Source of the DNA: an uncultured Candidatus Saccharibacteria bacterium
GTDB taxonomy: Bacteria > Patescibacteriota > Minisyncoccia > Phycocordibacterales > UBA2100
Reading direction: 5' to 3'
Assembly (NCBI GenBank): GCA_964633425.1
Contig: CAZWFX010000004.1
Coordinates: 18,517-82,516 of the forward strand
Length of the DNA: 64,000 nt
Translations under genes and position numbers: made by a program
Notes under the pieces: model-generated
Seen by the model: only the letters and a program-made list of their open reading frames with translations
What the model was told of the DNA's origin: nothing
Database searches by the model: none
Shown: positions 22,254 through 48,060 of the stretch, one piece after another
How the letters are laid out: each line of letters starts with the position of its first letter
How positions within the stretch are numbered: position 1 is the stretch's first letter

Positions 22254-22328
22254 GTGAATAAACAAATTCTACGATGGCTCTGAGCCCCGCTCACCCATCC
22301 CCCAACGGCGCGGTTCCCCCGCGCTGTT
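22254..22328 (+). repeat. Direct repeat copy B (orphan copy of the gene 3' end + terminator hairpin)
   Basis: Still encodes VNKQILRWL-stop, with two synonymous changes relative to copy A. Abuts the AT-rich cassette. Confidence 0.85.
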
Positions 22329-23025
22329 ACATTAAAAATTCCTCAATTTTATCAATGAGGTATCCGAGGTGCCGCACGCGTGAGTTTAATGACATGTATA
22401 CAGCAGCGTAATCAAGTGTTTCGATAGTCCGCAATGCATTTTTTGCGCGCTTTGTGTATTCGTCACCTGCGATTTGATATATATCGTGCAGTGTAGCAGC
22501 GGCTAATGGTATTGATTCCACGTCGTGGGTTGTGACATCAATCCCAGTGGCGGCGCGAATTGTATGTGGCGTTAGTGAAGAATGAATCTTCGCAAAATGG
22601 CTATGCTCCGCAATGAACCACGCTTCCACTTCCATTACAGATATGAGGATTTCGGGCGAAACTGTCTTTGTTGGCACATATTTGCGAGATGCCAGTTTCA
22701 CTTTGTTTAGATCTCTTAAGGCGTGCGGATGTAGGTCGCGTAAACCGAGAATCATTGCAAACTCAGCTTTTACGAGAGATTCGTGCTGATCAATTATCTC
22801 GGACTGCACTCGACTATCGCCGCCGCAGTCTGAGATCAAGGCAAAGTATTTTTGGGTTGAAATTTTGGACTTAGCAGTTATGACAAACGTCGATGCACCG
22901 CTCTTCTTACCAATAAATTTCTTTGTCTCAATTGCTATATTATGCTGTCCAGCAATTTCCAGAAGTAACTTCTCAATAAAGAGTTGCTCAGTTTGTCCCT
23001 CAACAAAAAAAGCGAGCTTTTTCAT
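22327..23025 (-). CDS. DUF4276/Toprim-like protein (RloB/AriB-like candidate nuclease)
   Basis: ORF trimmed to the ATG at 23025 (ATGA overlap with the ATPase stop). Starts MKKLAFFVEGQTEQLFIEKLL; later VMEVEAWF. AT-rich codons. Confidence 0.6.
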   Translation of the reverse strand: MKKLAFFVEGQTEQLFIEKLLLEIAGQHNIAIETKKFIGKKSGASTFVITAKSKISTQKYFALISDCGGDSRVQSEIIDQHESLVKAEFAMILGLRDLHPHALRDLNKVKLASRKYVPTKTVSPEILISVMEVEAWFIAEHSHFAKIHSSLTPHTIRAATGIDVTTHDVESIPLAAATLHDIYQIAGDEYTKRAKNALRTIETLDYAAVYMSLNSRVRHLGYLIDKIEEFLM

Positions 23026-24146
23026 TTCAGTCCAGTCGCAAGAAAATTTTTCGAGAAGAAATCGAAGTTGTTTAGCCCCGTATATGTGAACTCTTGAAAA
23101 ATCTTCTTGGAATTCGACATATTGTATATTTTTGATCCATTTTTTATTCGCTGTATAACATTCCAATATTTCAGATCTACATTGTTCATCACAAAGCGGT
23201 CATTTGTAGACATAATTAGTTGAACTTTGCCAGCTTCTGCCTCTTCAACAAGCAACTTGATTAAACTGGATGATCGATCGAAATCGAGCCCTTCACCTAT
23301 GTCATCAATTAAAATACCGCTTCTTGCTCCAACAACATTAAAGTATTCGATTTGTATAAGTAGTGCGAGCGCACGGAACATTCCCTGCGACATATTGTTT
23401 TGGTCAACAGGTGTACCAATTCCTTTTTCTTTAACATAAAGTCCAAGTAACTTTATTGATGTTTTCAAACTAACTGGAACGGCTACGCCAACGTCCGTCA
23501 AGTGGTATCCCAGCAGTTTCATTTTTGATATGACAGATGATTTGAATGCTTCACCTTTAATCTTCTCGCCCTTTCTGAAAGTCGAAATGACATGCTCGTT
23601 CGCTTCTACGATTGAATCTATGTCGTCTTCGTTTTGAAAAGCTAGCATTGAGTCCTTGCCAAGTGATGTGCCAAAACGAAATAGACTAAGTGACTCTGCC
23701 CACGCGTACAGCTCATTTAGACGCGGATGCTGCACCGCGTCCCGCTTTGTATTTAGCACAATCTCGTTTGTCTCTATCTGAAAATCTATAAGGCCACCTA
23801 CTTTGTCAGCAAATATTTTCCCTCTGCCTGTTTTTGACCTTGAAAAGACAACTTTATTATTGAATTTTAGCTCTTCCTTAGTAACACACGCATTTTCGAT
23901 TCTTAAAACATACTTATACACGTTCGATGCATGCAAAAAGGTCGCTTTATAGTTGGTCGAAGCATACGTAGCTTTCGACTTACCGGACATTAGTCCCGCT
24001 AGGCCTGAGATAACGTTAATTGTTCGAGTTTTCCCATTTGCATTTTTTCCAACAATTAAATTGACATCGCCAAACTCAGTGGCAGGGATTACCCACTCAG
24101 CTTTAGTGCCGGGAAATTGGCTATATTCAAACTCAATCAGCTTCAT
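23022..24146 (-). CDS. ABC-type (AAA_21/AAA_15-like) ATPase
   Basis: 374 aa. Walker A GKNANGKT, signature-like MSQGMF, Walker B GILIDDIGEGLD. Confidence 0.8.
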   Translation of the reverse strand: MKLIEFEYSQFPGTKAEWVIPATEFGDVNLIVGKNANGKTRTINVISGLAGLMSGKSKATYASTNYKATFLHASNVYKYVLRIENACVTKEELKFNNKVVFSRSKTGRGKIFADKVGGLIDFQIETNEIVLNTKRDAVQHPRLNELYAWAESLSLFRFGTSLGKDSMLAFQNEDDIDSIVEANEHVISTFRKGEKIKGEAFKSSVISKMKLLGYHLTDVGVAVPVSLKTSIKLLGLYVKEKGIGTPVDQNNMSQGMFRALALLIQIEYFNVVGARSGILIDDIGEGLDFDRSSSLIKLLVEEAEAGKVQLIMSTNDRFVMNNVDLKYWNVIQRIKNGSKIYNMSNSKKIFQEFTYTGLNNFDFFSKNFLATGLK

Positions 24147-38953: not shown

Positions 38954-39028
38954 GGCCCTATCGTCTATCGGCTAGGACACGCCCCTCTCACGGGCGAAAG
39001 CGGGGTTCGATTCCCCGTAGGGTCACCA
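38954..39028 (+). tRNA. tRNA-Glu (anticodon CUC), CCA encoded
   Basis: Manual cloverleaf: acceptor GGCCCTA/TAGGGTC, D arm GTCT..GGAC, anticodon arm CGCCC-CTCTCAC-GGGCG, T arm CGGGG-TTCGATT-CCCCG, discriminator A, then CCA. Confidence 0.85.
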
Positions 39029-40706
39029 TCAGGTTTTTATCGGGTACAAATCCCGAAGATAGTTCGAATACTGGGGACAATTTAGGTGTTCCACTAACTA
39101 TTTCTGGATAGGTAGGCATCTTGTCGAATACCAAACCAAATAGATCTCGTAAAGAGCGCGGATCATCAGGGTTTAGCAACAATTCGGCCGGGTGTTCCAT
39201 TACATATCGAGCGTCTTTGATGAATGCTTTTATGTCATGTCTCGAGATCTGTATTTTGAGTCGGATTTTTTGCGCCTCTTTTATCTTTCGGTCGCTCTCC
39301 TCAATTTCTCTTTCAAGTTTCTCTCTAACCACCGCACTTTTTGTGGAGATAAGTAGCCCCAGTTTTGCATCCTGCTCGGCTTCGAGGTCCGCTATATTTT
39401 GGTGAATATCGCCCGACGCTTTCACAATTTCTTTTTCACGTTGTCGGTATTTGTTCATAAAAACCAACTCGAGTGCATTGAGAATATCGGGCTGGAACTT
39501 CAAACTCGAGACATATCTAGTTACTGCTTTTTCAAAGTCTGCTTTTGGTACTCTGAATCCTTTATGATCTCGCGCACAATGATATCCGGGAAACTTCTTC
39601 CCAGACTTGCCTCGTGATGCACTACCCAAAAAGGGTTTTGAGCAATAAGGACAGAGCAGGAACTTGAATGGATACAAAGGGTTGTTCCTTACTCTTACCT
39701 CACCAGTCTTTGAGGAGCGTTTTGCCAACTCAAGACTTCCGTCAGAAGTTTGTTTCAAAATCAATTTCCCGCGATTCGCTCTGTTCCAAAGATCAATACT
39801 AACCAGTCCGTCATACTGCGCTTTTATGGGCTTGAAGTGGGTCCACAATTCACACATAACTCCCGCATAAATTGGATTTTCAATGTATCTCTGGAATTGC
39901 TTTACTGTAAGCGGTTTGCCGCCTCGTTTTGCGATAATCTGCGTGTGTTCTTTGTTCCATCGATTTCGGATTGGTGATCGAAAACCCATAGCATTTACCT
40001 GCGCAACACACTCTTCATCAGTTAGACCACGCGCACGTAGATCAAACATCGCCTGATAAAATAGTGCTCGATCTGGATCTGGAACCTGAATGGTTTTTTT
40101 CTTTCCCTCGACAAATACTTTCTCGTTTTTGTAACCATCCGAAGGAGCGCGTGTACGATAGCCTTGTTGTGCAAGTCGAATCTCTTGTCCTATCATTCGA
40201 TGGAGAATCGTCGTTACTTCTTGCTTTGATGTGGTAGCCAAAACATTTTCAGTGATTTCACTTGGGAAAAACCTGCTCCAGTCATATTCAAAACCTAGAT
40301 CTTCAAGAGTATTTATTGATGGCTGTATAACACCGAGGGTATCAATCATCACTACTCCGTATTTCAGAAGTTCCTTTTTCATCCGATCATACTCACCAGT
40401 ACCAGCACGAGTGAATCTATCTATCGACTTGAATACATAAAAGTTTACGAGCCCAGGATTTTCTTTTATGAACGAAAGTACTTCTTCAAAATCATCACGA
40501 TTAGTTTTTCGTCCAGAAATGGCTCTACCCCATACTTTTCCATGCGGATCATCTTTCGTCTGTGGAACAATAGTCCATCCTCTATCAGATGCGAATCTGC
40601 GTAGACTTTCTTCCTGTCGTTCCAAACTCTCTCCCTCTGATGATTGTTTGAGGGAACTAACTCGACATTGAACTACGCATTTTTTATTTTGTGATGATAG
40701 GTTCAT
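38988..40706 (-). CDS. Large serine recombinase (integrase)
   Basis: 572 aa. Catalytic region CVVQCRVSSLKQSSEGESLERQ, recombinase domain, zinc ribbon CPYCSKPF...YHCARDH, coiled coil. The last ~13 codons are antisense to tRNA-Glu. Confidence 0.85.
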   Translation of the reverse strand: MNLSSQNKKCVVQCRVSSLKQSSEGESLERQEESLRRFASDRGWTIVPQTKDDPHGKVWGRAISGRKTNRDDFEEVLSFIKENPGLVNFYVFKSIDRFTRAGTGEYDRMKKELLKYGVVMIDTLGVIQPSINTLEDLGFEYDWSRFFPSEITENVLATTSKQEVTTILHRMIGQEIRLAQQGYRTRAPSDGYKNEKVFVEGKKKTIQVPDPDRALFYQAMFDLRARGLTDEECVAQVNAMGFRSPIRNRWNKEHTQIIAKRGGKPLTVKQFQRYIENPIYAGVMCELWTHFKPIKAQYDGLVSIDLWNRANRGKLILKQTSDGSLELAKRSSKTGEVRVRNNPLYPFKFLLCPYCSKPFLGSASRGKSGKKFPGYHCARDHKGFRVPKADFEKAVTRYVSSLKFQPDILNALELVFMNKYRQREKEIVKASGDIHQNIADLEAEQDAKLGLLISTKSAVVREKLEREIEESDRKIKEAQKIRLKIQISRHDIKAFIKDARYVMEHPAELLLNPDDPRSLRDLFGLVFDKMPTYPEIVSGTPKLSPVFELSSGFVPDKNLMVTLRGIEPRFRP

Positions 40707-40923
40707 ATGCTTGATCGTCTTTTACAGTATGCGCTTTACGATTTATTTTTTCCAGCCACATATCAAAGTATTTATCTGCAATTCCATCAAGTGCAATAAG
40801 CATCCGGCGTAATTGTTCGTCGGTGTATTTATTTGCTGATGGCCCGAGTGCTTTTTTGAACTCCTCGAACGATGTGGCTGTTTGTTGTATTTCCGGCTCC
40901 ATTGTGGAGCGGATCCAGTACAA
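40684..40923 (-). CDS. Small hypothetical protein upstream of the integrase
   Basis: 79-aa ORF overlapping the integrase start by 23 nt. Could start at the internal MEPEIQQ. Confidence 0.35.
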   Translation of the reverse strand: MYWIRSTMEPEIQQTATSFEEFKKALGPSANKYTDEQLRRMLIALDGIADKYFDMWLEKINRKAHTVKDDQAYEPIITK

Positions 40924-41305
40924 CTAAAAAGGACCCGCAAAGTCCTTCCGAGAAACATATCGGAAGAAATCGCGAGTCCTTTTTCAAGGAGACTCTGGGG
41001 GCGGCGATAACGTTCAAAACCCCATTTATTTAGTTGTGCATAAATTGTATCAAACTTTTTTCTTTTGCAACAATGGCAATTTCCACAATTTTTCGCTATC
41101 ATTGAAGGACAACCGAATATCGGCCCCTTGAGGGCGGGACCTAACCCCGAAAGAGAAATCTATCGGATATGGTCTGAAAGTCGATCAAGCATAGAAAACC
41201 CGTCATGGGGTTGCTTGATCGCCGTATGGGGAAACCTGTACGAGAGGGTTCGCCCTCTACCCGTGGCGGGTTTTCTGTTGCCCGCCATAGGTTTTATTAG
41301 CAAGG

Positions 41306-41755
41306 TTGCTAGCGATCAAGCCAACCATGTTCAAACAAACATACAAACACGATGTTACTTTGCCCGGACGCGGGCTTTACTGGGTATTAGGTGCCATAGT
41401 CGCAGTTCTGGGTTTACTAGCCCTCACAGGCGCGTATTTTGCGAACACGGCCCAAGACTACGATGGGTATACCAAGCCGAAAGCGCAAGAAACGGCAATT
41501 ACCCCAGAAAAGATGCAGAACGGGGTTAGTGCGATGGCAGATTTTATGGTGAAAGATGGGAATGTTGTTGGCCTACGAATGTGGGCGCGATCCCTCGGTG
41601 TTTCTAGTCCGGAGTTCTCAAGTGCCGCAACACTTCGAGAGGAGATCCGTCGTGCCTCAAATGACTTTGCGATCTATCGAGACAAAAACGAGTTATTGAA
41701 ATTGATGCAGTTACTGGGTAATAACGATGCAATTCTCAACGAGGTCGTGAGGTAA
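41306..41755 (+). CDS. Hypothetical membrane-anchored protein
   Basis: 149 aa with one TM helix (GLYWVLGAIVAVLGLLALTGAYF). Confidence 0.45.
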   Translation: MLAIKPTMFKQTYKHDVTLPGRGLYWVLGAIVAVLGLLALTGAYFANTAQDYDGYTKPKAQETAITPEKMQNGVSAMADFMVKDGNVVGLRMWARSLGVSSPEFSSAATLREEIRRASNDFAIYRDKNELLKLMQLLGNNDAILNEVVR

Positions 41756-41756
41756 C

Positions 41757-44033
41757 CTAGAGTTTTTTGAGTTCAGTAAGCACTTCTTCAGAGTTTCCAT
41801 TGTGAACCAAGAAGAAGCGCTGATTTCCTTTACCAAGTTTTTCCCATTCTGTTGCTATCTCAACTTTGTAGGCAGTATCTTCGTTGCTGATGCGATCTTC
41901 GCCTTTCCATTCGAGAGCGACGATTGTTCCTTTTTTAGTTACAGCGACAAAGTCAGGATAAAACTTTCCTTTTTTCCAACCTTGAATGAAGAACGGATCT
42001 ACTTTCTCTCGATTGCGAACCCAGAACTCAATGTTATCTAGCGCACCGAGATCTATGCGTTCAACAAATACTCTTTCCTCTCCGTTGATTCCGTCGATAC
42101 GTTCATAGAGATTTTTATTGAAAACTTTTGGTACCGGAGATTTGAGCGCAATCGTTGAAGGAAACTCCTCAAACAAACCAACAGTAATTTTCTTCTTTGA
42201 AATGAGATCTGCAAATACTTTCTTTGTGTGCTTTTCAAGCACTTCGCTGATAGCAACCGAAAGACGGTCCGCGAGAAGATAGCGATTTACTGATAGTTCA
42301 GGTAGGGATCGTTTATGCTTCTTGATTTGATTGTTTATGGCCTTCTCTATGAAGGCGTTTTTATCCTCCGGAGTAACCATTGGGAAGCGTAGTTTCTTAT
42401 CTAGCCACGTTACCAGTTCATCCTGTGAGTGTTCTCCGTCCAGATATTGATATGGTAGTGAGAGTTGCTTGCCTTGTAGCCACTCATTCTCTTCAGTGAT
42501 ATCGATTGTGGCTTGGCCGTCGAGATCATAGTGTATTTTGAAATCGAAATCAGCATCTTGCTTTGCTAGTTCAAAATCATCAGCCAAAAGGTCCTCAAAT
42601 GATAGTTTGTTTTTACCGATTGCCATCATTGGGACCTGCAACTTCTTCTTGATTGCTTTTTTTGCTTCGAGGGGATCAGAGTACGTTTCTTCTTCAGTTA
42701 CACCGACAAAATCGCTGCGGCTGTATCCGTTATCTTCGAGTCCCTTGATCACCTTTGATGCTGCCTCGTTGAAGTTTGCTGCGGATGCAAACACATAACT
42801 TCGATTGAGTGCCTCGTCTGCTTTTTTCTTTGCGTTAGGCATACGGATCACACGGCCGATGATCTGCTCGACTGCAACTTTTGCGCCGAGATTCGCGACC
42901 GATATGAGGACGTAAGCATAGGAACAGTCCCAACCTTCCGCAAGGGCGTTTACGGTGAGGATGTATCGCACATCGCATTTCTTATCGAACAAATCAATTC
43001 CTTCGAGTTCGTCGACTTCTGATGTTTTGATCTTGATTTGTTCTTCCGGGATCTTCTTGTCGAGCAACATCTGCTTCAACGCTTCGACGGTAACCGTCGC
43101 TTTGGTTTTGCTCTTTGGTTGTGCTTGGAGAAGTGCAATAGGGCGGATCTTTTCTCCTTTGAGTTTTTCTGCACGCTTCTCCAATTCGTTGCGCTTCATG
43201 ATTCCGTCGGAAACAACTTGCTCCCATTGTGTGCGACTCTCAAGAACAATCGGGATTTTTACCATCTCCTCGATCTTTAGTTCTGATGCACTTGTGTGGA
43301 CGAGCACGTTGCTGCCATCTCGGGGAGTAGCGGTAAACTCGATGATAAATGACGGCTTGAGATCAGACAGGAACGAAATAGAAAGATCTGTCTGTGTGTG
43401 GTGGCCCTCGTCGATTACGATGAGAGGATTGTTTTTTCTAATCACGTTTGCGAGTGAGTTGATTACTTCACCCGCAGAGTCTTTTTCCAAAGCAGATACA
43501 TCTTTCAAGTTCTGGAAGTGGTCCATCAAGGCACCGTTTTCCTTGTAGACTTTGTACTTGTTTTGGATCTTGGCTTCCTTTCGGAAAGCATCGAGGCTCG
43601 CAACGATAATGCAGAGATTGTTTCGAACGTCCTCCGGCGTGATAGCCAGTGCCTCCTCGTTTGAAAATACTTTGAACTTCGTATCGAATGAGTCATTCAA
43701 GACTTCAAAATGTAAATCCTTTGGATCACGAAGTTTCTTGAGAGTTTGTGTTTTTATTGAGTCCGAAGGAACGAACCACATGACAATTCCTGTATCCATC
43801 TTGTTCTGAAGGATAGTCGACATGATTCTCTCAACAGATTTACATGCGACCAGGGTTTTACCTGCACCTGTAGGCATACGAAGGCACACAAAAGGCACGT
43901 CGTTGAACCACTGGTGATTGTAGTTTTTCTCGGTGATCTCGTTGAAAGCATGTCGTGCTTTCATTTTCTTGAGTAGTCCCAAGAACTGGTCGAGAGTATC
44001 TATCGCATTTTGTTGGTAGGTTTTGAACTTCAT
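41757..44033 (-). CDS. res: Type III restriction enzyme Res subunit (SF2 helicase + PD-ExK nuclease)
   Basis: 758 aa. Motif I MPTGAGKT, motif II VIDEGHH, motif III FTATP, motif VI QIIGRVIRM. C-terminal YPDF...ALEWKGE fits PD-(D/E)xK. Confidence 0.85.
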   Translation of the reverse strand: MKFKTYQQNAIDTLDQFLGLLKKMKARHAFNEITEKNYNHQWFNDVPFVCLRMPTGAGKTLVACKSVERIMSTILQNKMDTGIVMWFVPSDSIKTQTLKKLRDPKDLHFEVLNDSFDTKFKVFSNEEALAITPEDVRNNLCIIVASLDAFRKEAKIQNKYKVYKENGALMDHFQNLKDVSALEKDSAGEVINSLANVIRKNNPLIVIDEGHHTQTDLSISFLSDLKPSFIIEFTATPRDGSNVLVHTSASELKIEEMVKIPIVLESRTQWEQVVSDGIMKRNELEKRAEKLKGEKIRPIALLQAQPKSKTKATVTVEALKQMLLDKKIPEEQIKIKTSEVDELEGIDLFDKKCDVRYILTVNALAEGWDCSYAYVLISVANLGAKVAVEQIIGRVIRMPNAKKKADEALNRSYVFASAANFNEAASKVIKGLEDNGYSRSDFVGVTEEETYSDPLEAKKAIKKKLQVPMMAIGKNKLSFEDLLADDFELAKQDADFDFKIHYDLDGQATIDITEENEWLQGKQLSLPYQYLDGEHSQDELVTWLDKKLRFPMVTPEDKNAFIEKAINNQIKKHKRSLPELSVNRYLLADRLSVAISEVLEKHTKKVFADLISKKKITVGLFEEFPSTIALKSPVPKVFNKNLYERIDGINGEERVFVERIDLGALDNIEFWVRNREKVDPFFIQGWKKGKFYPDFVAVTKKGTIVALEWKGEDRISNEDTAYKVEIATEWEKLGKGNQRFFLVHNGNSEEVLTELKKL

Positions 44034-44034
44034 G

Positions 44035-45552
44035 TTAGTAGACTTTTATTTCGTATGGAATTTGCTTGAAGGTAATACCTTTCGACGCTAACTCATCCTC
44101 ATCAACAAGGCAGCGGTCCGCATAGATCACAGCCTGTCCGGTTATTTTGAGTTTTGCGAGCGCTTCTCGAGTGAGATCGTTCTTGTTCTTTCCAGTGTAT
44201 AGGAGATAGTAGGAAGTGCCATTGTTATCTCCAATGACTGGTGCCTTTATGTTTTTCTTCACCACATTTGTGTGTGTTTCGGTAAAGTAAATGTACGTAG
44301 CAAGTTCTTCGTAAGTACACTGATCGTTGATCTGTCCTTTCTCATTGAATAGGGGTTGCCCAAGACGGATATACTCAAAACCATCCGAATATGAGTATTT
44401 CTTCGACACTCTCTTTAGTCGTTCCGCTGTAATGTTTTTTGCTACATCGTCCTCAAGTTCAACAAGGATAAATTGTCGATTTGATCCATTTTTGTTTAGT
44501 TCCATCACTGCATGTCCTGTGGTACCAGATCCCGCAAATGAATCGAGAACAATCGAGTCATCATACGAAGATATCTTGATCAGGTGTTGGATGAGTTCAA
44601 TCGGTTTGGGGTTATTGAAAACTTCCTGCTTACCAAAAATGTCGGCAAGCATTTTGGCTGCGGAATCTGTTGAGCCATAGTTATCCAAGATGTTCGGTTG
44701 CGCTGAATATGTATCCTTGTCCTCAAAGTCATAGATTTTGAGTTTGATTACTCCCTTATCGTTGATGAAGCGACCTCGCTTTTCCAACTCCTGTGCTTTT
44801 TCTTGCCCAATTTGCCACCGCTTACCATTTCGCGGCTTTATTCCTAGAATTGGAAATTGCATTGATGCTCTTTCGTAGTCCCCAGCGTTCTTTTTTTCAA
44901 TGATAGTGAGTCTGTAAGAACCCTCTTTATCTTTATGAGGATAGTCTCGAGACTCTTTTGAAGTTACTCGAGGAAACAACCTACCACTAGAAGTTTTTGA
45001 GTAACAAATCTGATAATCAAAAAGTGAACTGACCTGTACTCCAGCAACATTTGTCGATGTTCCTTTCTTCTTCCAAATAAAACTTGTGATGAAGTTTTTG
45101 GCACCGAATATCTCATCCATCAAAAGTCGGAAATGGTGATTTTCATTGTCATCAAGACTAACAAAAATAACACCGTCGTCTGACATAAGATCCCTGATAA
45201 GTTTCAGTCGAGGGTACATCATGCATAGCCATTTATCATGACGGGTAAGATCTTCGCCCTCACGACCAACAACTTTTTTTATCCAGTCAGCAATTTTTGG
45301 TGAGTTCACTCTATCGTTGTAAACCCAATTTTCGCTACCTGTGTTATATGGAGGATCAATGTAGACGCATTTTACTTTACCCTTGTAGAAAGGCACTAGA
45401 GCCTTGAGTGCCTCGAGATTATCACCATTTATGAGGAGGTTCTTTGATTCGTTCTTCGCAGAGACAGATGCCACTTTTTCAAGCAATTTGAAAGGAACCT
45501 CCTTATCGTGGTTCACTACCGCATCTTTTCCAATCCAATTTAGTGTTGCCAT
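44035..45552 (-). CDS. mod: Type III R-M Mod subunit (beta-class N6-A/N4-C DNA methyltransferase)
   Basis: 505 aa. Motif IV VYIDPPYN precedes motif I DSFAGSGTTGHA. Stop lies 1 nt before the res start. Confidence 0.85.
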   Translation of the reverse strand: MATLNWIGKDAVVNHDKEVPFKLLEKVASVSAKNESKNLLINGDNLEALKALVPFYKGKVKCVYIDPPYNTGSENWVYNDRVNSPKIADWIKKVVGREGEDLTRHDKWLCMMYPRLKLIRDLMSDDGVIFVSLDDNENHHFRLLMDEIFGAKNFITSFIWKKKGTSTNVAGVQVSSLFDYQICYSKTSSGRLFPRVTSKESRDYPHKDKEGSYRLTIIEKKNAGDYERASMQFPILGIKPRNGKRWQIGQEKAQELEKRGRFINDKGVIKLKIYDFEDKDTYSAQPNILDNYGSTDSAAKMLADIFGKQEVFNNPKPIELIQHLIKISSYDDSIVLDSFAGSGTTGHAVMELNKNGSNRQFILVELEDDVAKNITAERLKRVSKKYSYSDGFEYIRLGQPLFNEKGQINDQCTYEELATYIYFTETHTNVVKKNIKAPVIGDNNGTSYYLLYTGKNKNDLTREALAKLKITGQAVIYADRCLVDEDELASKGITFKQIPYEIKVY

Positions 45553-45554
45553 AG

Positions 45555-45731
45555 TTATTTTGTGCTGGTTCCTTTCATAAAGCGCTCAAACTCTTCTCGC
45601 TCAATCCGGAACTCTTTGCCGATCTTATAGGCTTTGAGTCGCTTGGCTTTGATGTATCGGTAGATCGTCATCACGTTCACCGATAGCAATTCAGCCAACT
45701 CTTTTGCGGTGTAATACGCCTTTTCTGCCAT
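45555..45731 (-). CDS. Excisionase-family helix-turn-helix DNA-binding protein
   Basis: ORF 45555..46178 trimmed to MAEKAYYTAKELAELLSVNVMTIYRYIKAKRLKAYKIGKEFRI (58 aa), a typical excisionase/MerR-like HTH. Ends 2 nt before the mod start. Confidence 0.7.
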   Translation of the reverse strand: MAEKAYYTAKELAELLSVNVMTIYRYIKAKRLKAYKIGKEFRIEREEFERFMKGTSTK

Positions 45732-45791
45732 ACAGAAATGATACTTTACTTTTGTTGACATTACAATCACCACAGGAGTAACATTTCCACT

Positions 45792-47267
45792 ATGTTCCAA
45801 CCTAAAGCAGGAAGAAATGATCCTTGTCCTTGTGGAAAAAAGAAGCCCCACGGTGATTCCATCAAGTACAAAAAATGCTGCTTGTCGAAAGATGAGCAAA
45901 GAGCAAAACTTCAAGAGCGAGTAAAAAATGTTACTCGTGCTGACTTTGTAGGTGGTCCATATAAGAAATGCCCAAAATGCGGCAAAAAGACCTTTGGTGT
46001 TTGGATTGGCACAGGTGGTAATGGTTACTCTCGAGAGTGTACGACCTGTTGGCACAAACAGGGTTTCAAATTGCCAAAGATAAAAAAGAAAATCGTCTAT
46101 CTCGATCAGTTTTTGATAAGCAACATGACAAAAGCCCTCGACAAAAACGCGAGGAGCCATGCGGCAGTAATGACTCAACCTTTTTGGCTAGAAGCATATA
46201 AGAAACTGGATCGTCTTTACATGATGAATCTGATTATCTGTCCGGACTCATCCTTTCATACGAATGAGTCACTTTTATCAGGCGATCCACCTTACAAATC
46301 ACTGAAAAAAGTTTACGAGAGGCTTTCAGATGGATGTACCTTCTATGACCACCACACGATTGAGCGATTCCAAGTTCAGCAACATTTCAAGAACTATTTG
46401 GATGGAGACCCTGCAAAAACACTTGAACTCATTGTTGAGAACGTGGTTCATGGCCGACTTCACGAATGGCTTGGCAGAATGGGTGTACGTGTAAACATGC
46501 GCCCATATGACGGGCAACTCGAAGCGGTGCATAAAGAAAGAAACTCACTGTACGAATCAATGAAAAGTATCTTTGCTCGTTGGCAAAGTGAAAAAGATAA
46601 GAAGTTTGATGATTGGTTCAAGGAAGAGGGCTATGCTTTTGGAAAAGGTACGATTCAAGCGCACTTGAAGTTCTTACAGAAACAGGACGATTTTATGAAA
46701 AAGTATGCCACTGAATACGTAGACGGAAAGGAGCCCGAAGTAGACCTTGATAGCGTGTTACCTCCGGCATCGAGTGAACTTATACAGGCTTTATTGCGCG
46801 AACTACGTGGTCGAGGAATCGATGGATCCGATGCAATAAAGAAAATCATTGAATACCTTTCTTCTCAATACGTTCTCGATATTCCGTCTATTCGGATTTC
46901 TTCATTGCTGTACGCAAGTATCGCTCGTAAAGCAGCAAACGGACAAAAAGAACCGCCAAACAAAGGTACTTTTACAGACATAAATGCCATCTCAAGCCTG
47001 TTGCCTTATTGTGATGCGATGTTTGTCGATAATGGAATGGCGGCGCTACTAAAAGAAAGTCCACTAAACAAAGAACTTGCGGTTTATGCTGCTAAAGTTT
47101 TTAGTCCAAATACGAAGGAGGAGTTTCTTCAGTATCTTGACTCGTTAGAACAGGAGGCCGATCCTTCGCACCTAGAACTAATCCAAGATGCTTACGGCGA
47201 GACTTGGCTTGAGCCACACTTGAGTCTTTTGGAAAAGAACCCACTCGATGATGAGGAAGACGAGTAG
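45792..47267 (+). CDS. SEC-C motif + zinc-ribbon protein of unknown function
   Basis: 491 aa. N-terminal RNDPCPCGKKKPHGDSIKYKKCC (SEC-C-like), then CPKCGKK...CTTCWH. The large remainder is unrecognised. Acidic C-terminal tail DDEEDE. Confidence 0.65.
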   Translation: MFQPKAGRNDPCPCGKKKPHGDSIKYKKCCLSKDEQRAKLQERVKNVTRADFVGGPYKKCPKCGKKTFGVWIGTGGNGYSRECTTCWHKQGFKLPKIKKKIVYLDQFLISNMTKALDKNARSHAAVMTQPFWLEAYKKLDRLYMMNLIICPDSSFHTNESLLSGDPPYKSLKKVYERLSDGCTFYDHHTIERFQVQQHFKNYLDGDPAKTLELIVENVVHGRLHEWLGRMGVRVNMRPYDGQLEAVHKERNSLYESMKSIFARWQSEKDKKFDDWFKEEGYAFGKGTIQAHLKFLQKQDDFMKKYATEYVDGKEPEVDLDSVLPPASSELIQALLRELRGRGIDGSDAIKKIIEYLSSQYVLDIPSIRISSLLYASIARKAANGQKEPPNKGTFTDINAISSLLPYCDAMFVDNGMAALLKESPLNKELAVYAAKVFSPNTKEEFLQYLDSLEQEADPSHLELIQDAYGETWLEPHLSLLEKNPLDDEEDE

Positions 47268-47694
47268 AAGTCGATCGTTGATAAAGCAATAAAGTTTCAT
47301 TTTGTTCGACCTCTAACCTTGGGGTCAACTCCTCTGCAAAAAACATTGCCATGTCCCACTTGAGAATTGAGTTTGCCGCGGCAAGTCGTTCCATTGTTGA
47401 AGAGTCTTTTTCTTCTAGGATTAGGGCTATTTTCTTTGTAATGACTCGGTGTCTTTCCTTCAGATTTATCAATCTCTCTGTGCGGCTTTGACATGACAGT
47501 TCCGCAAGGTTTTCTATTCGAACCTTTTTCATTAGTCTCGCTACGTAATGCCAGTCGAGTTCTCCGCGCAGAGATTGGTAACCTTTCAGGTAAAGCGCAT
47601 TACGAACTTGTGCCACGGACTTGAGGGGAAAGAGTGCGATCTCATCGCGAATCGCTCGCTTGATCAGTTCTTCAATTTCTTTTGGCTTTCTCAT
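47101..47694 (-). CDS. Hypothetical protein (3' portion overlaps convergent gene; extent uncertain)
   Basis: 197-aa ORF. The first ~135 aa have plausible helical composition. The last 167 nt overlap 45792..47267. Confidence 0.4.
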   Translation of the reverse strand: MRKPKEIEELIKRAIRDEIALFPLKSVAQVRNALYLKGYQSLRGELDWHYVARLMKKVRIENLAELSCQSRTERLINLKERHRVITKKIALILEEKDSSTMERLAAANSILKWDMAMFFAEELTPRLEVEQNETLLLYQRSTSTRLPHHRVGSFPKDSSVAQAKSRRKHLGLVLGAKDRPPVLTSQDTEETPPSYLD

Positions 47695-47883
47695 GTTCGT
47701 GTTTATTCGTGGTTTTGCTCGCTCGCTACACTACGTTCCATACCCTGATAGGTAATGTCTTTTGTCTCGATTGATTCTGAAAAATGGCTAAACCACATGC
47801 GTTTGTGATAGCATTAGATAACTCGGATTGAGGGTTTGGAACACCGTTTTCCATTTCAAAACTAGGTTTTCTATGGTGTTCCA

Positions 47884-47906
47884 TTCAAATCCCTCCGGGC
47901 TCACAA
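47884..47906 (+). other. tRNA 3'-end-like fragment (T loop + 3' acceptor strand, no 5' half)
   Basis: TTCAAATCCCTCCGGGCTCACAA, followed by the same hairpin/trailer repeat found after intact tRNA genes. No complementary 5' acceptor strand lies upstream. Confidence 0.4.
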
Positions 47907-48060
47907 AAACACCAAGAAACCTGCACTGCTGCAGGTTTCTGCGGTTTTTGGGAAGACGGAGGCATGTTTTGCCAGCAGGCAAAACGGCCGAGTCCGGGGC
48001 TGGAAAATTTTCGAGCGGCGGCGAGAAAATTATTGTGGCTCACAAGACACTTCACGCCGA
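47907..48060 (+). repeat. tRNA-trailer repeat, diverged copy
   Basis: Terminator hairpin AAACCTGCA/TGCAGGTTT, then H1 GTTTTGCC-AGCA-GGCAAAAC and H2 AATTTTC-GAGCGGCGGCGA-GAAAATT. Homologous to the reverse complement of 60749..60894. Confidence 0.7.

Follow-up and report, generated by a model that had tools for sequence, protein, structure and literature searches.

A zinc-knuckle and zinc-ribbon protein family linked to restriction-modification genes: a candidate accessory defence nuclease carried by a Patescibacteria serine-recombinase element

In a 64,000-nucleotide (nt) stretch of the genome of an uncultured Candidatus Saccharibacteria bacterium (the window, meaning this whole stretch), an open reading frame (ORF) at 45792..47267 (+ strand, ATG start) encodes a protein of 491 amino acids (aa) that combines an N-terminal SEC-C-type zinc knuckle, a zinc ribbon and an alpha/beta core. 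Sequence searches place this protein in an undescribed and widespread family, the core of which is absent from Pfam and PDB, and the linkage of this family to restriction-modification (R-M) genes is clear. The explanation that we favour, tentatively and with a probability of about 0.4, is that the 491-aa protein is a candidate stand-alone, restriction-linked accessory defence nuclease carried as cargo of an integrative element. A second ORF (47101..47694, - strand, ATG start, 197 aa) converges on the 491-aa gene and overlaps it by 167 nt; both ORFs and their overlap had been put forward by a model that saw the letters of the window and its list of ORFs (the sequence-only reading), and both were found as claimed, along with every motif quoted in that reading.

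Family membership, domains and fold of the 491-aa protein

A search of 5.8 billion proteins returned 206 homologues of the 491-aa protein, the best of which (74% identical) is encoded by a Candidatus Buchananbacteria genome; these homologues are without name or are labelled just 'SEC-C' or 'Zn ribbon'. A profile search of 1.84 billion cluster representatives yielded 731 at an E-value (E) <=1e-30, a figure that counts clusters at 50% identity, and 1335 at E<=1e-10. Among the 185,579 species of GTDB, each represented by one genome, 126 encode a relative, and these are spread over Patescibacteria, Acidobacteriota, Planctomycetota, Verrucomicrobiota, Gemmatimonadota, Bacillota, Gammaproteobacteria, Nitrospirota and others, while members were found in three of 2.9 million viral contigs. 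The homologue counts, the 126 species and the three viral contigs therefore indicate that the family is real, sizeable, cellular and patchily distributed.

The SEC-C-type motif and zinc ribbon that had been read by eye from the N-terminus (RNDPCPCGKKKPHGDSIKYKKCC) are real. In a conservation alignment of 36 family members (35-75% identity), 22 match PF02810 (best E 9.4e-10) and all 36 keep the ribbon cysteines C60, C63, C83 and C86. Searching the PDB sequences with the family alignment produced SEC-C matches alone, namely to the SecA and YchJ zinc knuckles (E 1.5e-5 to 4e-5, with SecA at 1.5e-5), and nothing for the core. Taken by itself, the SEC-C copy of the window falls below the Pfam SEC-C threshold, because the knuckle carries an insertion of 6-7 residues, and gives weak NCBIfam SWIM/SEC-C matches. 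The knuckle is found in about two-thirds of the 36-member sample, half of these with an insertion of the window type; in the wider family most members lack the knuckle and some also lack the ribbon. The ribbon locally matches that of ELOF1/Elf1 (8b3d_M; Foldseek probability 0.91, TMt 0.54).

Additionally, the alignment contains 28 invariant columns, which besides the cysteines include Y103, D105, Q106, K114, W132, P151, H156, E159, Y175, S179, Q194, W226, E279, A381, G384, D396, P405, Y406, A409, D413 and P475. The conserved residues of the N-terminal core half are D105, K114, D152, H156, E159, Y175, S179 and Q194, of which D152 is kept in at least 90% of the members and the others are invariant, and W264 and E267 of the helical insertion are near-invariant. 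The acidic blocks IVYLD105QF and LPYCDAMFVD413N rank with the best-conserved segments of the family. The acidic C-terminal tail noted in the sequence-only reading exists (residues 481-491), but its conservation is confined to the closest relatives.

The AlphaFold2 model of the 491-aa protein is confident (mean predicted local distance difference test (pLDDT) 91.8, predicted template modelling score (pTM) 0.85) and consists of the N-terminal knuckle, a four-stranded ribbon (53-93), an alpha/beta core, a helical insert and a disordered tail. The core strands S1 to S5 (100-104, 148-149, 183-184, 409-411 and 435-437, respectively) alternate with helices, and the insert (206-387) splits the core in two. 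The order of elements in the model, S1-H-H-S2-H-H-S3-H-[insert]-H4-S4-H-S5, is that expected for a PIN-like domain, as judged from secondary structure alone. PIN-like domains have a three-layer alpha/beta/alpha core built on a five-stranded parallel sheet. In these domains near-invariant acidic residues follow S1, stand at the N-terminus of H4 and follow S4, a fourth usually follows S2, and H4 is the crossover helix between S3 and S4 (Matelska et al. 2017, PMC5499597). In the 491-aa protein D105 comes after S1 and D152 after S2, E159 lies in the helix that comes next, D396 is at the N-terminal end of the helix (393-406) ahead of S4, and D413 follows S4. The acidic residues of the family thus fall at all four PIN-like active-site positions, a match of position alone, and in a parallel sheet would all lie on its C-terminal edge.

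Several results weigh against a nuclease core of this kind. The clustering of the acidic residues was read from strand and helix positions alone. Foldseek comparison of the whole model with PDB gave a best E of 0.28 and no PIN match among the 50 best, and comparison with viral models (BFVD) was likewise non-significant (best E 0.17); the helical insertion gave helical-bundle matches, all non-significant. A separate model of residues 95-210 (pLDDT 86.5) returned 24 matches, all at E>2 (lowest 2.2); VapC20 ranks second and seventh among these (probability 0.09, TM 0.27), FEN1 ranks 15th, and a second M. tuberculosis toxin-antitoxin complex is also present, which may be taken as a lean towards PIN-like structures and not as a match. 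When the 36 members were scanned against Pfam, 47 families were matched at E<=10, and the 25 listed comprise SEC-C and zinc-ribbon families alone, with no PIN-clan family among them and the core uncovered. Comparison by hhalign with one PIN family, VapC (PF01850), gave probabilities of 0.1-0.2% for the full-length, core-only and N-terminal-half alignments, the VapC alignment (61 sequences) having been built for the purpose from a single PIN protein, the sole one found in the fetched loci. Similarly, Pfam, PADLOC, NCBIfam and PHROG scans of the two window proteins returned nothing meaningful for the 491-aa core or the 197-aa protein, the whole 491-aa protein having two marginal matches in PADLOC-DB v2 (RTasPolA, E 8e-4 over 75 residues, and the SEC-C tail of PDC-S12, E 3e-3).

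The PIN-like interpretation of the sequence-only reading was borne out in part: the acidic blocks are conserved, stand at PIN-like positions and belong to a core split by an insert of about 180 residues, whereas the profile (Pfam, hhalign) and Foldseek comparisons were negative or non-significant; in these comparisons neither a housekeeping nor a nuclease fold was matched significantly. A PIN-like core is plausible but unproven, and we would give even odds to the core being a PIN-like domain that has diverged strongly. The TIR, HAD, Toprim, vWA, PD-(D/E)XK and RNase H folds were set aside by eye, as their signature motifs or their order of secondary-structure elements do not fit.

Linkage to restriction-modification genes and what it may mean

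The neighbourhoods of family members were surveyed at 79 species loci, using simple ORF calls. In 19 of the 79 loci, and in the window besides, an R-M-type gene is found no more than 5 kb away, by a seed-based count in which some hits are possibly generic SNF2 helicases; as an internal control for proximity, the nearest R-M-type gene lies at 5-10 kb in two loci alone. The proposal that the 491-aa gene is an accessory gene of the defence-island type beside an R-M system thus holds across the family. The possible helicases among the hits temper this linkage, as do the approximately three-quarters of loci with no recognisable R-M gene within 5 kb and the frequency of housekeeping genes or genes of unknown function among the neighbours. 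No conserved neighbour or operon partner emerged from the 79 loci when about 190 flanking proteins were clustered and scanned.

In the window, the 491-aa gene is part of a low-GC (guanine-cytosine) island (about 39 kb to 47.9 kb, GC 0.41-0.45 against approximately 0.55 in the flanks) and is divergent from a HTH_17-mod-res Type III operon, with 60 bp between the start codons, which confirms the position first ascribed to it. Promoter-like sites stand back to back in this 60-bp spacer, with -10 boxes that end 6-7 nt ahead of each ATG (Table 1); these are matches to the consensus alone, and such sites occur in the region no more often than expected by chance.

The R-M genes linked to the family are of Types I, II, IIG and III, and DpnII, D12 and C5 genes are among them. 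Within the closest Patescibacteria clade, family genes are accompanied by HTH_17, a 222-aa protein, an N6_N4 methylase and ResIII (Type III; locus L009), by a complete and divergent DpnII system 66 bp away (L004/L010), by a D12 methylase 7 bp away plus GmrSD (L012), by a D12 methylase (L013), by an N6_N4 methylase (Type III; L015), by a LexA-like repressor and a C5 methylase (L016) and by an N6_N4 methylase 30 bp away (L023). Outside this clade, the link is operonic in two loci: in L055 the family gene has a 3-nt overlap with a gene for an Eco57I/MmeI-type methylase and lies downstream of a gene for a PLD-SNF2 protein, and in L027 it follows genes for a PLD-SNF2 protein and an N6_N4 methylase with a gap of 22 bp and is itself followed by a gene for a RAMA-domain protein. 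Type I HsdR or HsdM genes precede the family gene in L019, L060 and L072, likewise outside the clade. A divergent HTH_17 gene was considered as a general feature of the family and rejected, as it is adjacent in the window and L009 alone; in L051 and L074 it stands on the other strand, 3.5-3.7 kb upstream.

LexA-like proteins (LexA_DNA_bind plus Peptidase_S24) are encoded beside family genes in three Patescibacteria loci (L016 9321-9944, L023 1070-2935 and L028 9277-9882). The 622-aa neighbour in L023 clusters with the other two and was also picked up as an N6_N4 methyltransferase, and it appears to be a LexA-like/methyltransferase fusion. These neighbours hint that some 491-family genes may be under DNA-damage or repressor control.

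The flanking genes also bear on a role outside defence, in which the 491-aa protein would be a factor for replication, transfer or maintenance of a mobile element, or a non-catalytic zinc-ribbon protein that binds DNA or RNA. Large serine recombinases form the commonest neighbour family (seven loci), site-specific recombinases of the serine or tyrosine type lie within 5 kb in 11 loci, and relaxase, transposase or phage-portal genes occur in others; overall, the Pfam matches of 191 flanking proteins are scattered over housekeeping functions, unknowns, recombinases, integrases, transposases and R-M domains. The 491-aa gene is moreover carried by an integrative element, and its product has no assigned enzymatic fold. 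Against this stand its place in the variable cargo and not in the conserved backbone of that element, the majority of loci without adjacent mobile-element genes, and the invariant acidic and histidine residues, which suggest catalysis. Such a role survives best among the alternatives and is, in our view, quite unlikely.

Modification-dependent (Type IV-like) restriction enzymes need no cognate methyltransferase and are typically found beside other R-M systems. A stand-alone DNA restriction endonuclease, for instance of this kind, would accommodate the lack of a conserved partner, the proximity to methyltransferases and restriction genes including GmrSD, and a zinc ribbon that weakly resembles the DNA-binding ribbons of NrdR and Elf1 (NCBIfam Elf1, E 0.0018). 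It fits less well with the residue pattern, which agrees better with the PIN-like template, canonical VapC-type PIN proteins mostly cutting RNA, and no modified-base reader, PD-(D/E)XK, HNH, GIY-YIG or PLD domain was detected in the 491-aa protein. We consider this explanation improbable and place it after the non-defence role.

PrrC is an anticodon nuclease with an ATPase domain that is linked to the R-M system EcoprrI and is tied to one R-M type. By analogy, the 491-aa protein could guard restriction, being silenced by or monitoring the R-M system and turning into an indiscriminate nuclease once a phage inhibits restriction. The short distances to the HTH-mod-res operon in the window and the DpnII operon in L004, the overlapping and closely spaced genes of L055 and L027, and the recurrence of the HTH_17, R-M and 491-aa module in a second, distantly related element (L002/L009) would all suit a guard. 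However, R-M partners of such unrelated types (I, II, IIG and III) speak against a specific physical partnership, the flanking 5 kb contain no R-M-type gene in about 75% of the members, and neither an ATPase nor another PrrC-like domain was detected. A guard function is accordingly the least probable of these three alternatives.

The integrative element and the 197-aa ORF

The low-GC island coincides with an integrative element (Table 1) whose modular construction became apparent from comparison with the related locus L007. The DNA common to both comprises 38954-41326, 41531-41691 and 47273-47905 of the window, with nothing in between. The backbone thus covers approximately 39001-41700 and 47269-47906 and contains genes for a serine recombinase, a 119-aa protein, a LOOT RNA and the 197-aa protein, while the cargo of about 5.5 kb (approximately 41700-47268) is made up of res, mod, HTH_17 and the 491-aa gene. 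This cargo is exchangeable, as the backbones of L007 and L092 carry a gene for a DUF4365 protein (e.g. of 933 aa) instead. Immediately adjoining the related element of L092 (926-9110) is a further defence cluster, with genes for Fic, N6_N4 methylase, ResIII helicase, Shedu-type SduA_C and DUF2779 proteins.

One end of the element falls in the 3' part of the tRNA-Glu(CTC) gene. The window and L007 recombinases fall in the same cluster at 90% identity, and the layout of tRNA-Glu and recombinase gene is the same in both. The last 13 or so codons of the recombinase gene are antisense to the tRNA-Glu gene (38988..39028 in the window, 16821..16861 in L007), and its C-terminus is therefore encoded across or at the attachment site. 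No direct repeats were found to flank the island, which is in line with a serine recombinase. At the right end (47882..47906, + strand), a sequence resembling a tRNA T-arm and 3' acceptor (TTCAAATCCCTCCGGGCTCACA) is conserved in L007 and by eye matches the corresponding part of the tRNA-Glu at about 60%, a resemblance that would be in keeping with an attP half-site mimicking attB. Just outside this end, a bidirectional terminator-like hairpin (47915..47940; 11 pairs, with a T run on either strand) probably served the tRNA-Glu gene as its original terminator. The LOOT RNA recurs in L002 (4840-4962), L007 (14591-14710), L089 (11656-11778) and L092 (13849-13970); with the window, these are five of the seven loci with a gene of the 197-aa family, to which it is always antisense. 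These Patescibacteria mobile elements therefore appear to include this orphan RNA as one of their parts. The locus therefore documents a modular, tRNA-targeting serine-recombinase element of Patescibacteria that swaps defence cargo and carries a LOOT RNA.

The 197-aa ORF belongs to a family of its own, in which 44 homologues were found, 138-189 aa long and for the most part encoded by Parcubacteria. The 23 invariant columns of this family all lie within the N-terminal 125 residues or so, and the tails are unrelated. Conservation of the window ORF accordingly holds for residues 1 to about 141 and not for the tail that overlaps the 491-aa gene. The DNA similarity to L007 stops at 47269-47273, only a few bases away from the stop codon of the 491-aa gene; in L007 and L094, too, the homologue extends into the first cargo gene. 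Because the junction lies there, the last 56 or so codons of the ORF represent antisense read-through into the cargo, and by this sequence comparison the overlap is an artefact of the backbone/cargo junction.

Nor was the pairing of the two proteins sustained. The family profile of the 197-aa protein finds a neighbour of a 491-family gene in one of the 79 species loci (L002/L009) besides the window, while L007, L089, L092, L093 and L094 contain a 197-family gene but none of the 491-aa family; in L007, L092 and L094 the 197-aa homologue and a large serine recombinase gene of the same orientation stand at opposite ends of a variable segment, and L089 and L093 have the homologue without a recombinase. 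The 197-aa family therefore travels with large serine recombinases and, most simply, its members would be backbone factors such as a regulator or a recombination directionality factor. A two-gene addiction or toxin-antitoxin-like pair, to which the adjacent, convergent and overlapping genes of the window and the same adjacency in its closest relative (L002/L009) had seemed to point, is very improbable and already refuted at the family level by this restricted co-occurrence, by the five loci with the 197-aa family alone and by an overlapping tail that is not conserved sequence.

Outside the element, a second low-GC patch (22327..24146, - strand, GC 0.39-0.47) encodes a 374-aa AAA ATPase, which matches AbiLi (E 9e-20), PARIS AriA (E 2.7e-15) and HEC-01A, and an overlapping 279-aa protein, which matches HEC-01B. 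From these matches, the two genes look like a separate two-gene defence system of the AbiL/PARIS type.

Table 1. Features of the element, of the 491-aa gene and of the 197-aa ORF in the window
Feature	Position	Strand	Basis or remark
tRNA-Glu(CTC), integration target	38954..39028	+	tRNA call; 3' end overlaps recombinase ORF antisense
Large serine recombinase, 572 aa	38988..40706	-	PHROG integrase, E 3e-39
Integrative element, ~8.9 kb	39001..47906		blastn and alignments against L007, GC profile; extent approximate
LOOT RNA (Rfam RF03000)	41138..41258	+	71.6 bits, E 1.7e-11
Type III R-M restriction/helicase subunit (res)	41757..44033	-	PADLOC REase_III, E 3e-91
Type III R-M methyltransferase (mod)	44035..45552	-	PADLOC MTase_III, E 4.9e-157
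HTH_17 (MerR/excisionase-type), 58 aa, first gene of R-M operon	45555..45731	-	Pfam HTH_17, E 1.5e-15; PHROG excisionase/regulator match
Promoter-like site for HTH gene, back to back with that of 491-aa gene	45766..45738	-	Consensus match alone
Promoter-like TTGACA-18-TAACAT, ends 7 nt before 491-aa ATG (leaderless-type)	45755..45784	+	Consensus match alone
491-aa SEC-C / zinc-ribbon / alpha-beta-core gene	45792..47267	+	ORF; stop codon 47265-47267
Variant SEC-C zinc knuckle, residues 8-31 (C12, C14, C29, C30), 6-7 residue insertion	45813..45884	+	Family alignment, profile
C4 zinc ribbon, residues 53-93	45948..46070	+	Invariant cysteines; four strands, pLDDT 94-97
N-terminal half of alpha/beta core, residues 95-205 (S1 to S3)	46074..46406	+	Alignment, AlphaFold2
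All-helical insertion, residues 206-387 (~180)	46407..46952	+	AlphaFold2; invariant W226, E279, A381, G384
C-terminal half of alpha/beta core, residues 388-480	46953..47231	+	Alignment, AlphaFold2
Acidic C-terminal tail, residues 481-491	47232..47264	+	Low confidence, pLDDT 45-61
Non-conserved tail of 197-aa ORF, antisense to end of 491-aa gene	47101..47268	-	No homologue similarity past ~residue 141
Conserved part of 197-aa ORF, residues 1 to ~141	47269..47694	-	Homologues; DNA 79-90% identical to L007

Proposed mode of action and comparison with known systems

As a defence nuclease, the 491-aa protein could operate in the following manner. The SEC-C knuckle and the C4 ribbon would hold a nucleic acid or a machine bound to nucleic acid, while a putative acidic pocket at the C-terminal edge of the sheet, formed by D105, D152/E159, D396 and D413 with H156, would bind a divalent metal and cut phosphodiester bonds as in PIN-like nucleases. 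The helical insert of about 180 residues may be a lid or a sensor, by which the enzyme would stay latent until infection. The protein would act alone, needing neither the 197-aa ORF nor a particular R-M type, and its linkage to R-M genes would mean that it is selected and mobilised together with them, as a second defence line. The support for a defence nuclease is all computational, and confidence in it is hence moderate to low. If true, it would constitute a compact single-gene system found from Patescibacteria to Acidobacteriota and Bacillota, a concrete case of genetic coupling between one nuclease family and R-M Types I, II, IIG and III, and a handle on the role of N-terminal SEC-C knuckles outside SecA; if the family is not defensive, the finding would shrink to a further conserved hypothetical protein encoded in a mobile island. 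A bolder version, in which the family is a single-protein immune effector whose core either has a novel fold or is PIN-like but diverged past detection, functionally coupled to R-M systems of all types, for instance as a fail-safe nuclease set off once restriction is bypassed, and maybe as a broad-host counterpart of the lactococcal system Rugutis, seems unlikely to us.

The 491-aa protein resembles the PIN-like superfamily in the predicted order of its strands and helices, the acidic residues at four positions, the fusion to zinc modules, the monocistronic gene and the linkage to R-M genes, as described for some PIN-like toxins. It differs in the lack of profile or fold similarity at significance, in an insert (between the helix after S3 and H4) far larger than the known ones, and in the invariant H156, which is atypical of PIN domains. 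Nob1 is a further PIN-like member with a zinc module or a long helical insert. Fusion to zinc modules is frequent in PIN-like RNases, and precedents exist for zinc fusions (Mut7-C, PRORP, ZC3H12A), for long helical inserts (DUF4935) and for occasional coupling to Type I R-M systems (PMC5499597). According to that survey, a link of the kind that the 491-aa family would provide, to R-M Types I, II, IIG and III, had not been shown for PIN-like enzymes; it saw none next to Type II systems, whereas the 491-aa family adjoins them (Matelska et al. 2017, PMC5499597). There is no known PIN-like family with the architecture of the 491-aa protein and none linked to Type II systems.

With PrrC and RloC, the 491-aa protein has in common that it is an accessory predicted nuclease encoded in or beside R-M operons, possibly as a second line of defence. 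Unlike these, it has no ATPase or anticodon-nuclease domain, and its family is found with every R-M type and not with one, most members not being next to an R-M system. The C-terminal zinc domain of SecA and YchJ (PF02810) contributes the knuckles matched by the family profile, a likeness of about 25 residues; in the 491-aa protein the motif is N-terminal and carries the window-type insertion, and it is absent from most of the family.

Rugutis is a single-gene, Abi-like system of a lactococcal plasmid (pUCCL633_059, 359 aa), in which a SEC-C motif stands at the N-terminus of a protein with a confident model and no PDB neighbours, and which is triggered by the phage large terminase (Grafakou et al. 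2024, Mosterd et al. 2025; PMC11381338, PMC12184496). When three members of the 491-aa family were compared with the plasmids of PLSDB by tblastn, Rhizobium and Mesorhizobium plasmids alone were matched, with no match to a Lactococcus plasmid. Furthermore, a 25-residue SEC-C peptide matched 1143 plasmid records of unrelated architectures, in which the motif stands at the N- or C-terminus of, for example, a 455-aa Enterococcus, a 226-aa Bacillus and a 239-aa Clostridium protein (L091, L098 and L099), and on mobile DNA such knuckles seem to be added promiscuously to other proteins. As SEC-C is fused to so many unrelated plasmid proteins, a common motif of the Rugutis type proves little by itself. 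Rugutis is 130 residues shorter than the 491-aa protein, and no zinc ribbon has been reported for it. Both are, however, encoded by a single gene on mobile DNA, with SEC-C at the very N-terminus and a confident AlphaFold2 model without a PDB neighbour, and by architecture as described Rugutis would be the closest described analogue of the 491-aa protein.

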